A DNA stretch of 64,000 nucleotides from assembly GCF_055900595.2 (NCBI RefSeq), contig NZ_CM148325.1; one strand, written 5' to 3'. The position numbers and the translations under genes were made by a program. The first letter of the stretch is position 1. Every line of letters begins with the position of its first letter. Of the stretch, positions 25,568 to 30,005 are shown in pieces. The notes beneath the pieces were generated by a model. The model saw nothing but the letters and a program-made list of their open reading frames with translations, was not told the origin of the DNA and did not search any database.

Positions 25568-26986
25568 TTATTTCCCCTTCCTCGCCGCCTCATACGCTGC
25601 CAACGTTCGTACTCTCGCTTCTTTGTGATCGACTATCGGTTGCGGATAATCCAGCGTCACACCTGATTTATCTGCCCACTTCCACGGTTCATGCACCGCT
25701 TTCCCTGGTACATCGCGCAACTCTGGTAGCCACCGGCGGATAAACTCACCTTCGTGGTCAAATTTCTCGCCCTGAGTTGTCGGATTGAAAATACGGAAAT
25801 ACGGTGCAGCATCGGTTCCAGTAGAAGCCGCCCATTGCCAGCCACCGTTATTGGCTGCCAAATCACCATCAATCAGTTGCGACATGAAATATCGCTCGCC
25901 TTCCCGCCAGTCGATCAGCAAATCTTTCACCAGAAAACTGGCAGTAATCATCCGCAGGCGATTATGCATCCAGCCAGTGCTGTTAAGCTGACGCATGGCC
26001 GCATCAACAATCGGGTATCCCGTTTTGCCTTCCTGCCAGGCCTTTAAATGCGCGGGATTACTTTGCCACTGTACGCGATCGGTCCAGGCAATAAAGGGGC
26101 GATGCTTACACAGTGACGGGTGATACGTCATCAAATGACGGTAGAACTCGCGCCAGATCAGCTCATTAAGCCAGACGCTACCAGCCCCGCCATCCAGCGC
26201 TTGCGGCTGTTCCGCCAACAGGCGATGCAGACACTGGCGAGGCGATAACCTACCCGTTGCAAGGCTTGCAGACAAACGGCTGGTGCCTTCCACTGCCGGA
26301 AAATCACGCTGCTGATCGTACTGACTCGCACCGTTCTGGCAAAACTGGCGTAATTGCGCAATCGCCGCTTTTTCTTCCACCGGGAAATGCGCGGTATCGA
26401 AAGACTGACGAGGGTAATTCAGCGTAATAGATGGCGCGGGATCTAATGATCCGCTACTCCGAACTTTTGGCGCAGCGACGCACTCCGGCATCCCTTCCCG
26501 CAGCCGTTTCAGCCAGGCATTCTTAAAAGGCGTAAAGACTTTGTACATCTCATGATTGCCAGTCATCACCGCCCCCGGCGGCAGGATCACGCTGTCATCG
26601 AACCCTTCACACACCACGTTACTCAGCGCTCTTTCAACTTCCACATCCCGCGCCCGCTCATTCACCTCATACTGATAGTTATAAAACAGATGGGTAACAC
26701 GATTTTCCGCGCACACCTGTTTAACTATTTCGACGCTGGCGGCAAAGTCATCCACTTCATGAAACAGCAAAGGAATACCTTTTTCCGCCAGCGCGTTTTG
26801 CAGCGCATTAAGTTGTGTATTGATAAGTTCAGCCTGACGCGGCGACACATTATGCGCCGCCCACTGGCGTGGTGTAGCGATATACAACGCCAGCACGCGT
26901 GCAGACGAATTGCGGCAGGCGGCAGCAAGCGCGAGATTGTCGTGCAGACGTAAATCCTGGCGAAACCAGACCAGATGGGTAGTCAT
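25568..26986 (-). CDS. phr: deoxyribodipyrimidine photolyase
   Basis: 472 aa, MTTHLVWFRQDLRLHDN..., FAD-binding C-terminal domain. Confidence 0.97.
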   Translation of the reverse strand: MTTHLVWFRQDLRLHDNLALAAACRNSSARVLALYIATPRQWAAHNVSPRQAELINTQLNALQNALAEKGIPLLFHEVDDFAASVEIVKQVCAENRVTHLFYNYQYEVNERARDVEVERALSNVVCEGFDDSVILPPGAVMTGNHEMYKVFTPFKNAWLKRLREGMPECVAAPKVRSSGSLDPAPSITLNYPRQSFDTAHFPVEEKAAIAQLRQFCQNGASQYDQQRDFPAVEGTSRLSASLATGRLSPRQCLHRLLAEQPQALDGGAGSVWLNELIWREFYRHLMTYHPSLCKHRPFIAWTDRVQWQSNPAHLKAWQEGKTGYPIVDAAMRQLNSTGWMHNRLRMITASFLVKDLLIDWREGERYFMSQLIDGDLAANNGGWQWAASTGTDAAPYFRIFNPTTQGEKFDHEGEFIRRWLPELRDVPGKAVHEPWKWADKSGVTLDYPQPIVDHKEARVRTLAAYEAARKGK

Positions 26987-27492
26987 AAAACTCCTGCATG
27001 GCGCAAGTTAATCACCCGCGGCCAAAGTTCGAAATAACGCTGCCCTGAAAGCCAGGCGTCAGGATAAAGCGCCATATAGTGTTTGATACGCATCAGCGGC
27101 GCAAGAAGCGGTTGCTCGCCACGGCGATAACTGTCGATAAGCGACGCCAGCTGCTGGCGTTCTGTGGAATCAATATGTGGGCGAAAATATCCCTGAACGT
27201 GCATCAAAACGTTAGTATGATCACGCCGGTTGGCAGGGTGAGAAAGCAAAACAATTACGCGTTGACGGTACTGGTTGTAATAGTCATCCAGATTTTGCCA
27301 CTGGTGAATATCAGCCACAAACGGGCCAAGTTTGCGGTATTCCGGCTGGGAATGAGCCAGAAAGACGAGTTTATAGCGGCTGTGATAATCGTTGAGCGCC
27401 CCGCGCGTTAGCCCATGTTCTTTCAGTCGATGTAACTCATGAAGGGCGAAGATACGGATTAGGGTGCTTTCATCAAATCGTTGCTGATTCAT
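26983..27492 (-). CDS. ybgA: DUF1722-family protein
   Basis: 169 aa; overlaps phr start; SD AGGAG lies inside an inverted repeat. Confidence 0.9.
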   Translation of the reverse strand: MNQQRFDESTLIRIFALHELHRLKEHGLTRGALNDYHSRYKLVFLAHSQPEYRKLGPFVADIHQWQNLDDYYNQYRQRVIVLLSHPANRRDHTNVLMHVQGYFRPHIDSTERQQLASLIDSYRRGEQPLLAPLMRIKHYMALYPDAWLSGQRYFELWPRVINLRHAGVL

Positions 27493-27576
27493 TACTGCTC
27501 CTGAACGGTTTACAGGAGTAAGTGTAGACGGCAGTATTGAAAAAACGAAACGAATAAATGAATTCGGTAAAGAAAT

Positions 27577-27984
27577 TCAATTATTCATAATAAAGTTCAT
27601 AGTAGCGATAAATAGTTTCTTTTCTTCATCACTCATGGCAGCAACGTTTAACATGTTGTCATCAAAATTATTGATGTTATTTTTTAATTTCAGTAACTGC
27701 AAAGGAGAAAAATAGTCACTCCCGATGAGATTACTCAATACCAGCAATAGCTCCCCATCATATAAATAGCCCACCATAAGATTAATCTCTATCATCTCAA
27801 TTGCTTTTTGTACAGCAAGCGCCGGTAAGATATTCTGACGAAGCATTTTGGCAATATCATTTTCATCCAGTTCATCGGGTGTTTTATCTAATAAAGAATT
27901 ATACCAGTTTATTAAACCACTTTTGAAAGCGAACGAATCATATTGCAGGTGATAAATCTGTTTTAGGGTTTCTTTATTTTTCAA
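27577..27984 (-). CDS. hypothetical protein, AT-rich accessory ORF (possible immunity protein)
   Basis: 135 aa ORF with no TM segments, very AT-rich codon usage unlike neighbouring core genes; function not recognised. Confidence 0.5.
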   Translation of the reverse strand: MKNKETLKQIYHLQYDSFAFKSGLINWYNSLLDKTPDELDENDIAKMLRQNILPALAVQKAIEMIEINLMVGYLYDGELLLVLSNLIGSDYFSPLQLLKLKNNINNFDDNMLNVAAMSDEEKKLFIATMNFIMNN

Positions 27985-28026
27985 TTTATAGTGCCTTTAT
28001 TTGCTATAATTTTTTCTGAAATAACA

Positions 28027-28494
28027 TCAGCGAGTTTGCTCAGGTGCAGGGATGACCGAAATTGTCATGTATTTTTTCAGTCTGGCTTCTCGTTTCACAC
28101 CTTTCGGATCTGAACCAAAAGGAAGCGTCAAGCATGGTGAGTCAACGGTTTGGATTGTCCAGAGAGAATCACCAATGAATCTGAAATTGATGCTATCCGC
28201 TGTAACGGATAATCCCTCAAAACTTCCCGTCGCATACTCATTACCCAAACGTACGGTCTCTTTAACTCCATCGTTAACATCGATAAGGACAATTGTCAGT
28301 GATTCCTCAAAAATAACGTCATCCGTCAGAAAAAGGATATAACGCTGGTCATTAACCTGAATTGCCGCTTCCAGTATTTGCCCTGGTACAATAATACCTG
28401 TGTTATTGCCATTGAGCACAACGTCAGACTGAGCCTGAGATAAATCAGTCGCTTTGTGAACCTTGACCAACGATATCGAATTAACCTGTTGCAT
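28027..28494 (-). CDS. hypothetical protein, accessory ORF
   Basis: 155 aa from MQQVNSISLVKV; the 31 extra N-terminal codons in the longest ORF are the shadow of an upstream glycine-rich frame; start lies 2 nt after the stop of that small ORF (TGAttATG). Confidence 0.5.
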   Translation of the reverse strand: MQQVNSISLVKVHKATDLSQAQSDVVLNGNNTGIIVPGQILEAAIQVNDQRYILFLTDDVIFEESLTIVLIDVNDGVKETVRLGNEYATGSFEGLSVTADSINFRFIGDSLWTIQTVDSPCLTLPFGSDPKGVKREARLKKYMTISVIPAPEQTR

Positions 28495-28496
28495 AA

Positions 28497-28637
28497 TCAA
28501 TTCCACAAGCGCCCCATTTCCCATGCGGCAAGTGCACCGCCGACAAAGCCGCCAATAAGTACGCAAACAGGTGCTCCTGGACCACACATCAATCCGGTCA
28601 ACGCACCGCCTGCGACAGCACCGGCAATAATATTCAT
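28497..28637 (-). CDS. small glycine-zipper hydrophobic peptide (46 aa); possible C-terminal remnant of a disrupted gene
   Basis: MNIIAGAVAGGALTGLMCGPGAPVCVLIGGFVGGALAAWEMGRLWN with GGN-rich codons; no clear SD; in frame with the upstream 85-aa ORF across two stop codons. Confidence 0.3.
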   Translation of the reverse strand: MNIIAGAVAGGALTGLMCGPGAPVCVLIGGFVGGALAAWEMGRLWN

Positions 28638-28820
28638 CCGGGTACGACTGCCAGTGGTTTTAACAGATTTACGCTCACCGTTACGTATCCTGCCACCACT
28701 CAGGTTGCAGACGCGGCAGTCACAGCCTTGACGGTGTTGAAACTAAAGTTCAGGTGATAGTCTGATGTTCATAGTTTGAGCATTATCCCCTGACAGAATA
28801 AAATCAAGCAGTGTCAATGA

Positions 28821-29078
28821 TCACGTGTATATATCATTTAAAGCATTATCAAGCCAATCTTCCATGTTTTTAATTTTAGCCCGCGCATATAAATCATTCA
28901 TAACATCCTCATAACTCTGCCCATCATTGACCATACAATTAGCTGTATGAGGCAGAACATGTATAAAATCAGACAATATAAAACAAGCCTTTGAATTTCC
29001 AGAGTTAGCTGCAATTCTGATATCAATCAATCCTCTGGCAATCAATTTAAGAATAACATCTTGCATTTTAATTTCCAT
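28821..29078 (-). CDS. hypothetical protein, AT-rich accessory ORF
   Basis: 85 aa ORF (MEIKMQDVILKLIARGLIDIRIAANSG...); weak SD; same reading frame as the glycine-zipper segment downstream. Confidence 0.4.
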   Translation of the reverse strand: MEIKMQDVILKLIARGLIDIRIAANSGNSKACFILSDFIHVLPHTANCMVNDGQSYEDVMNDLYARAKIKNMEDWLDNALNDIYT

Positions 29079-29160
29079 ATCATCCAGTTAAATTTCAGTA
29101 GTAAATCGTCTATCAAAAAAAGATGAAATTAACATTCATAAATTTATTACAATATGAAAA

Positions 29161-29514
29161 TCAAAAATATACATCATCAGCTTCTTCCGAAAACTCCATG
29201 GCTCCTAAGGCACCTAAATCAATACTAAATATAGTATCACTTTCCTTAGCACTCCCAACATAGATAAAATAGCCTAAATCTCCGTCTTGACCTATCAAAA
29301 AATAGTCAGGTTCCACTTGTTGAATATCATATGTTTCATTTCTTTCAATAAGATCAGAATAGTTATATAAATATAATGTTTCGTGCTTCTTATTAGTTAT
29401 TTCATAGGTCTCACTATCTTTAATTTCTTCTATCAAAAAATGTTTATACACTGGAGGAAACTTGATTGACATGTCAAATTCAATTTTATTTATATATTCT
29501 ATAATTTTATTCAT
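29161..29514 (-). CDS. SUKH (SMI1/KNR4)-like immunity-type protein
   Basis: 117 aa with FPPVYKHFL near the N-terminus and YFLIGQDGDLGYFIY near the C-terminus, resembling SUKH family signatures; AT-rich; no HMM run. Confidence 0.55.
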   Translation of the reverse strand: MNKIIEYINKIEFDMSIKFPPVYKHFLIEEIKDSETYEITNKKHETLYLYNYSDLIERNETYDIQQVEPDYFLIGQDGDLGYFIYVGSAKESDTIFSIDLGALGAMEFSEEADDVYF

Positions 29515-29798
29515 GTTAAGAATACATGAAAGATTATTTATTGATTATCTTGATGAATATATCTTCACTTTTTATTTTCATTTACTCATCGCGGAAATAC
29601 ACATTGCCTTGTAGACAAGCGCTAATAATACGTTATGAACCTGACTTCCGCCAGACAATCAATCTATGAATTCATTACGCCGTAGTGTTTTAGAAAGACA
29701 CTTTCTGACCAGATGGTGAACCATATACTACATCGCGCATTATAAAAAAACCGCCAGCGTTTCCACTAGCGGTTTTCAATGTTTTCAAAACTCAGCAA

Positions 29799-30005
29799 TC
29801 AGTAAAAATCACCGGTTGCCTTTTCGGCCTGATCCATCCACACCGGTTTATCGCTGGTTTTCGACCAGACGCGATGCAGATAGCTGTAAAAGCGGGCGCG
29901 GTCTTTCCAGAAAAGCATGAAAGGCAGCGCCAGAACGCCCGCTGCAACCGCATAAGTACGGCGTAAAAAGATAAGCCATGCAGGATATTCTCTGTAGAGT
30001 TCCAT
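29799..30005 (-). CDS. ybfA: DUF2517 small protein
   Basis: 68 aa, [49 protein letters not shown]... Confidence 0.88.

Follow-up and report, generated by a model that had tools for sequence, protein, structure and literature searches.

The minus strand of the window (the whole stretch of DNA analysed here, 64,000 nucleotides from contig NZ_CM148325.1 of NCBI RefSeq assembly GCF_055900595.2) probably carries the stump of a toxin gene, fused to the scar of an IS630-family element and followed by an orphan immunity gene that sits within an array of other orphan immunity genes. The anatomy of the locus, its junctions, the family relationships of its parts and the strict synteny of toxin and partner are matters of direct observation. 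The full-length relative of the stump would act against bacteria as an effector that depolarises membranes or forms pores in them, and type VI secretion would deliver it in at least some cases. Taken together, the feature represents a toxin-immunity module that has decayed and bears an IS scar, that is, a case of ordinary genome decay. Its history at base level, comprising an IS630 insertion, internal deletions and a fusion at microhomology, supersedes the sequence-only reading of the same DNA, in which two nonsense mutations had inactivated a single gene. Additionally, three annotations are corrected, namely a chimeric ORF of 186 aa, a "hypothetical protein" of 46 aa, and an 85-aa ORF which is a truncated form of a 94-aa one. 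The analysis also flags a large, unstudied two-gene family, consisting of a glycine-zipper protein of ~240 aa and a beta-rich partner of ~155 aa. Several traits of this family are hallmarks of interbacterial toxin-immunity systems: one member is fused to PAAR, some variants are extended at the N-terminus, and both truncated copies and partners without a toxin occur. The features of the interval are listed below in the order in which they are read.

29161-29514, minus strand: 117-aa ORF of SMI1/KNR4 (SUKH-1) immunity type, first of the array after ybfA (Pfam SMI1_KNR4, E 2.1e-4)
28821-29078, minus strand: 85-aa ORF, a truncated 94-aa ORF (alignment with strain M7424)
28627-28831, minus strand: IS630-family scar (blastn to the IS630-family copy on pQE31, ISEc40 matches, PGAP)
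28497-28637, minus strand: chimeric 46-aa ORF (codons 1-3, MNI, from the transposase; codons 4-46 from the toxin)
28497-28626, minus strand: 3' remnant of the toxin gene (last 43 codons and stop, residues 198-240 of a glycine-zipper protein of ~240 aa)
28027-28494, minus strand: 155-aa ORF, intact partner and presumed immunity gene of the glycine-zipper toxin (synteny in intact loci)
27577-27984, minus strand: 135-aa CdiI_3 immunity gene, last before ybgA (Pfam CdiI_3, E 2e-17)

The interval from ybgA to ybfA (window 26983-30005) is identified by its gene families as an orphan immunity array of SUKH, CdiI_3 and the 155-aa gene. Immunity families are present without a cognate toxin gene, and the content of this conserved site varies among strains. 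No toxin-delivery gene was found between ybfA and ybgA, the largest ORF being that of 186 aa. The 117-aa ORF is labelled SMI1/KNR4 in one RefSeq record, and PGAP names the 135-aa ORF a "contact-dependent growth inhibition system immunity protein". In E. coli the interval occurs in at least three forms: empty (O145 RM9872), with a three-gene immunity array of SUKH, the 94-aa ORF and CdiI_3 (~250 genomes), and with the array plus an insertion of ~810 bp (13 genomes); the form with the insertion also occurs in E. fergusonii. For the 85/94-aa ORF, Pfam, NCBIfam, PADLOC and PHROG gave no match. It lies between two immunity genes, with 0-1 aa differences among ten copies. By alignment it is an independent gene and not the N-terminus of a toxin, and it probably represents a further orphan immunity gene whose family has yet to be described. 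A displaced Rhs tip was the first expectation, since the site is that of rhsC in K-12; a C-terminal tip of Rhs or CdiA was rejected, as no homologue is fused to either protein and the parent is a stand-alone protein of 240 aa.

Re-translation of the minus strand confirmed the reading frames, both stop codons and the TGAttATG junction that had been described from the letters. From 29078 to 28497, the strand reads as 85 codons, a TGA (28823-28821), 25 open codons (SLTLLDFILSGDNAQTMNIRLSPEL), a TAG (28745-28743), and 81 open codons ending in ...MNIIAGAVAGGALTGLMCGPGAPVCVLIGGFVGGALAAWEMGRLWN before a further TGA (28499-28497). The ATG of the 155-aa ORF (28494-28492) follows this last stop, that of the glycine-zipper frame, at a distance of 2 nt. 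The 186-aa ORF (28027-28587, GTG start) begins out of frame across the glycine-rich segment and is a chimera, as had been proposed; PGAP and all homologues begin at MQQVNS, which gives 155 aa and not 186. The TGA and the TAG are both kept in 9/9 other copies compared. The caution that the shared frame could be coincidence was well placed, as the 85-aa ORF, the linker and the glycine-zipper part have three different origins and their common frame is due to chance; a shared frame is expected in 1 of 3 cases, and 25 stop-free codons have a chance of ~0.3.

The window from ~28019 to ~28831 is an insertion of ~810 bp that is richer in GC than its surroundings (0.42-0.55 in the inserted segment vs 0.25-0.35 in the flanks, with a jump at both edges), the glycine-rich segment and the DNA around it having 0.46-0.55. 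Its breakpoints were placed by alignment of the window with the insertion-free strain M7424, in which the first ORF is 94 aa long (ending in ...NDIELNQKNHSK and a stop) and the CdiI_3 gene comes directly after it. The insertion of the IS630-family element has replaced the last 10 codons of this ORF with YT and a stop, which leaves 85 aa. Since the inserted segment spans ~28019-28831, the TGA of the 85-aa ORF lies in inserted DNA, a few bases beyond the junction. The right edge of the insertion is not an IS end. The insertion (window 28000-28830) is present in 13 of 5,426 complete E. coli genomes and in E. fergusonii too, and the flanks without it were found in ~250 E. coli genomes. Ten copies from E. 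coli and E. fergusonii differ by 0-2 nt per 468 nt in the 155-aa ORF and by 2-7 per 132 nt in the toxin stump. When the window is compared with EC42405 and 2020CK-00188, 7 of ~11 differences in the 831-bp segment fall within ~60 bp of the toxin stump (GALTGLM vs GAMAGLV), and the adjoining 468-bp immunity ORF has 0-1 differences. This cluster looks like a small recombination patch or the effect of relaxed constraint.

The linker between the 85-aa ORF and the glycine-zipper part is, by homology, an IS630-family scar composed of a left end and an internal piece of the transposase gene. The left terminus of the element, TATACACGTGATCATTGA..., starts at 28831 and adjoins the TA target in AATGA-TA. 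In blastn, an IS630-family copy on the S. marcescens plasmid pQE31 matches the window in two places at 86% identity each: its left end and 5' region (905-991) align with window 28834-28748, and an internal part of its transposase gene (1498-1577) aligns with window 28706-28627 (LSGGRIRNGERKSVKTTGSRTRMNII). The homology to the left end extends at DNA level to ~28748 and, as a weak match at protein level, to ~28704; an internal deletion of ~450 bp separates this left part from the transposase fragment. Moreover, tblastn of the conceptual peptide retrieved IS630/ISEc40 transposases with up to 88% identity across 26 residues, and PGAP annotates 28584-28703 as an IS630 family transposase fragment. 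The view of this label as a mis-annotation was dropped, as tblastn and blastn show it to be correct. The IS ends escaped the inverted-repeat finder and were read by eye from the ISEc40 copy. The likeness to IS630 (ISEc40-like) elements thus consists in the left terminal sequence beside a TA target and the 86% nucleotide identity over two segments. The difference is that the window has a scar and not an element: ~200 of ~1,150 bp are left, with no right end and no intact transposase.

The IS630 fragment accounts for both stop codons. The TGA (28821-28823), the TAG (28743-28745) and also the ATG of the 46-aa ORF (28637-28635) are all held within the scar; the TGA belongs to the conserved IS terminal sequence CGTGATCATTGA, the TAG falls in the 5' region of the IS, and the ATG encodes the Met of the transposase motif ...TGSRTRMNIIGAL.... 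At 28627/28626 a TAT microhomology joins the IS fragment to the toxin, as is expected for an illegitimate deletion, and the Ile at the junction of the 46-aa ORF is compatible with both transposase and toxin. An intact Enterobacter copy matches the window at DNA level from exactly ...TATTGCCGG (window 28626) onward, and the peptide therefore equals residues 198-240 of the parent. The nearest database proteins of the 46-aa peptide are fragments of 74-141 aa, to which a profile adds proteins of ~240 aa.

Two explanations treat the glycine-zipper frame as a gene of the present locus. The proposal that the 85-aa ORF, the linker and the glycine-zipper tip formed one toxin gene of ~190 codons, killed by two nonsense mutations, drew on three stretches lying in one frame with only a TGA and a TAG between them, and is refuted by the mapping of the junctions. 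The 85-aa ORF and the glycine zipper flank opposite sides of an insertion junction at which the GC content shifts. The former is complete as 94 aa, without the glycine zipper, in ~250 genomes, and the N-terminal 197 residues of the intact 240-aa relatives are unlike it. Both stops sit in the IS630-family remnant and not in homologous coding sequence. Furthermore, no uninterrupted homologue across both parts was found in the 5,426 complete E. coli genomes or in protein databases, and the glycine-rich segment is the tail of an unrelated conserved gene, that of the 240-residue family. It is also very improbable that the 46-aa ORF is an independent, functional small membrane protein or a class II microcin-like peptide against which the 155-aa ORF provides immunity. 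In its favour, the ORF is open in 10/10 copies, is labelled as a hypothetical protein (CDS) in some RefSeq records, is hydrophobic (KD19 1.72) and translationally coupled to the next gene, and has a weak Pfam Bacteriocin_IIc match (E 5.8e-4), which is compositional and covers the Gly-rich region alone. However, it takes its start codon and first three residues from transposase codons at a deletion junction, no evident Shine-Dalgarno sequence precedes it, 46 stop-free codons are not significant in GC-rich DNA, and no other stretch of the locus varies as much. It is also without the first transmembrane helix and the entire N-terminal domain of the parent toxin. Class II microcins resemble it in being glycine-rich hydrophobic peptides of similar size, but they differ in having a leader, a PCAT/ABC exporter and a small membrane immunity protein, whereas the peptide here is a fragment of a 240-aa protein. 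The ORF starts MNII and has no double-glycine leader of the kind carried by 60-110-aa microcin precursors, and no PCAT/ABC exporter or accessory gene occurs among the neighbours (ybfA, SUKH, CdiI_3, ybgA, phrB). Of the two identities suggested earlier, that of a toxin tip was upheld, with residues 198-240 belonging to a glycine-zipper family, and that of a class II microcin was rejected.

The parent proteins of ~240 aa occur in Kosakonia, Enterobacter, Pantoea, Serratia, Pectobacterium, Pluralibacter, Cronobacter, and Pseudomonas, form 772 clusters at 50% identity, and are named "hypothetical" or "glycine zipper family protein" and nothing else. The AF2 model of the 240-aa toxin (pLDDT 89) is all-helical and combines a long bundle at the N-terminus with three hydrophobic helices, which are also long, and its AFDB relatives are all uncharacterised. 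Searches of the NCBIfam, PADLOC, PHROGs and Pfam libraries and of PDB sequences gave nothing meaningful for toxin or partner, and the literature, queried also by accession and locus tag, yielded no paper on the family and no solved structure. One of 32 N-terminally extended homologues scanned has a PAAR_motif (Pfam E 1.7e-17) N-terminal to the toxin domain, and other extended homologues carry PG_binding_1 or LysM. A 407-aa homologue with a novel N-terminal extension is encoded divergently from seven large genes, one of them for an AAA+ ATPase with AAA_lid_6 and the others without a Pfam match; this cluster may be an extracellular contractile injection system, providing a second delivery route for the toxin domain. 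Additionally, two distant toxin copies, one from Kosakonia sacchari and one from a metagenome contig, show a frameshift in one and the same linker region (...STPVG.A.A...K / G.TLNEL...), so that each forms two ORFs; in Kosakonia sacchari the shift lies at an A7 run. Close relatives are intact, and the split copies could be independent pseudogenisations or sequencing errors.

The coupling of the 155-aa ORF, likened earlier to that of toxin-immunity pairs, is a constant property of the family. A partner homologue of 150-162 aa follows 2-13 nt past the toxin stop in every intact locus examined, and these loci cover Kosakonia, Enterobacter, Pantoea, Pectobacterium, Pseudomonas, Cronobacter, and metagenomic sequences. 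The partner of the PAAR-fused toxin is 39% identical to the product of the 155-aa ORF (E 7e-26), and the 155-aa sequence is identical or nearly so across the E. coli and E. fergusonii copies. The protein has no TM segment and no signal peptide, and its AF2 model (pLDDT 85) is soluble and all-beta, resembling a few propeller blades. A promoter and terminator scan at the locus of the gene remained at noise level. Reduced forms of the module also occur elsewhere: Enterobacter ludwigii has a 5'-truncated toxin with an intact partner beside tmRNA, and Cronobacter malonaticus has the partner alone, the pair being found in a similar neighbourhood in C. dublinensis. The module is often located at the tmRNA (ssrA)/smpB site of island integration, right after tmRNA in Enterobacter ludwigii and ~1.4 kb past smpB in Pantoea agglomerans, and it persists there with or without an inserted island (CbtA/CbeA, restriction-modification, SACS-like ATPase).

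The idea of a toxin and its immunity protein holds because residues 198-240 match the toxin family, the downstream partner is constant, and a PAAR fusion exists. In that single case the toxin domain is fused to a trafficking domain; a homologue of the immunity gene lies immediately downstream, and is co-inherited, in every intact locus examined. From this arrangement, a contractile injection machine would deliver the toxin in at least some cases, and the 155-aa protein is presumably its immunity protein. No T6SS structural gene (hcp, vgrG, paar) was found near the Pantoea, Enterobacter, Pseudomonas, Cronobacter, and Kosakonia loci; at the Pectobacterium locus, a PAAR plus Pyocin_S/Ntox28 effector lies 2.5 kb off in the same island. 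Because no intact locus examined sits in a T6SS cluster, a different account of the pair is kept, although we consider it unlikely: the 240-aa and 155-aa proteins would form an intracellular toxin-antitoxin or abortive-infection module, in which the soluble partner restrains a membrane effector, and the E. coli copy would be a decayed one. The intact pairs are indeed stand-alone bicistrons, often in islands beside tmRNA/smpB and among defence genes (type I restriction-modification, BrxC, TerB, PIN, CbtA/CbeA), and the partner is predicted to be cytoplasmic and soluble. An intracellular module would, however, leave the PAAR fusion and the other N-terminal extensions, which are typical of polymorphic secreted toxins, to be explained, as well as the retention of partner-only copies in Cronobacter, E. 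coli, and E. fergusonii and the position of the present partner amid SUKH and CdiI_3 immunity genes. It also has no PADLOC match.

For the favoured explanation, a decayed effector-immunity module, the following course of events is proposed. Foreign, GC-richer DNA of ~810 bp would have entered at a TA dinucleotide in the 3' end of the 94-aa ORF, the left edge of the foreign segment being the left end of an IS630-family element. The element would have decayed to this left end and, across an internal deletion, ~80 bp of internal transposase sequence. A deletion at a microhomology would then have joined the scar to codon 198 of the 240-codon toxin gene, so that only the last helix-and-a-half of the membrane hairpin of the toxin is left. 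The remaining piece would be read from a transposase Met codon as the 46-aa ORF, and the partner gene (155 aa) is intact and keeps its native TGAttATG coupling. The stump is most likely a non-functional leftover, which at most would bring ribosomes to the coupled start of the immunity gene. The 155-aa soluble beta-protein may neutralise the toxin by binding it, and the orphan gene may have been kept in E. coli because it protects against toxin-bearing Enterobacter, Pantoea, and Kosakonia neighbours. Somewhat short of an even chance, and put forward tentatively, is the wider proposal that the all-beta protein is the first of a family, so far unrecognised, in which soluble immunity proteins of the cytoplasm sequester the hydrophobic hairpin of the toxin, with orphan copies in E. 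coli, E. fergusonii and Cronobacter being protective against toxin-bearing Enterobacterales. If this is true, the toxin must work from, or traverse, the cytoplasmic side of the membrane.

Among the closest known systems are two kinds of arrangement at Rhs, CDI and T6SS loci, namely orphan modules of toxin tip and immunity gene, and arrays of orphan immunity genes (Poole et al. 2011, PMC3150448; Pantoea T6SS1 islands, PMC9796082). As in these, a 5'-truncated toxin is followed by an intact immunity gene among SUKH and CdiI_3 genes at a strain-variable locus, the toxin being lost and the immunity retained. In contrast to the Rhs and CDI modules, the fragment in the window is no displaced Rhs/CdiA tip but comes from a stand-alone parent of 240 aa, and it was truncated through an IS630-family element and deletions rather than by tip displacement (conserved-core recombination). 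The family may also be set beside Ssp6/Tpe1, Tse4, Tse5-CT, and Pse2, with which it shares the form of small stand-alone or PAAR/Rhs-borne inner-membrane effectors with a downstream immunity gene, found at scattered, horizontally acquired loci. No Pfam or NCBIfam model joins the toxin family to these effectors, and they are set apart by their descriptions. Immunity to Ssp6, to Pse2 and to the CDI ionophores is provided by membrane proteins (PMC6889166, PMC9796082, PMC11630599); Sip6 and Psi2 carry TM helices (Ssp6/Tpe1, PMC6889166; Pse2, PMC9796082), whereas the 155-aa partner in the window is modelled as soluble and without a TM helix. Tse4 is now modelled as a beta-barrel (PMC11630599). As identities for the toxin, Ssp6, Tse4, and Pse2 were set aside, their immunity proteins being of a different type when compared by description. 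A soluble cytoplasmic immunity protein for a membrane pore-former would be unusual. A parallel is offered by EsxX of S. aureus, a glycine-zipper toxin that depolarises membranes and is neutralised by the soluble ExiAB (PMC12744356). EsxX is an LXG/T7SS toxin of Gram-positives with no sequence relationship to the family described here, and the orphan immunity genes of its system encode the membrane proteins ExiCD (PMC12744356), whereas the orphan in the window is the soluble partner. Both toxins have a C-terminal glycine zipper, and in both systems a co-encoded soluble cytoplasmic protein could sequester that zipper.
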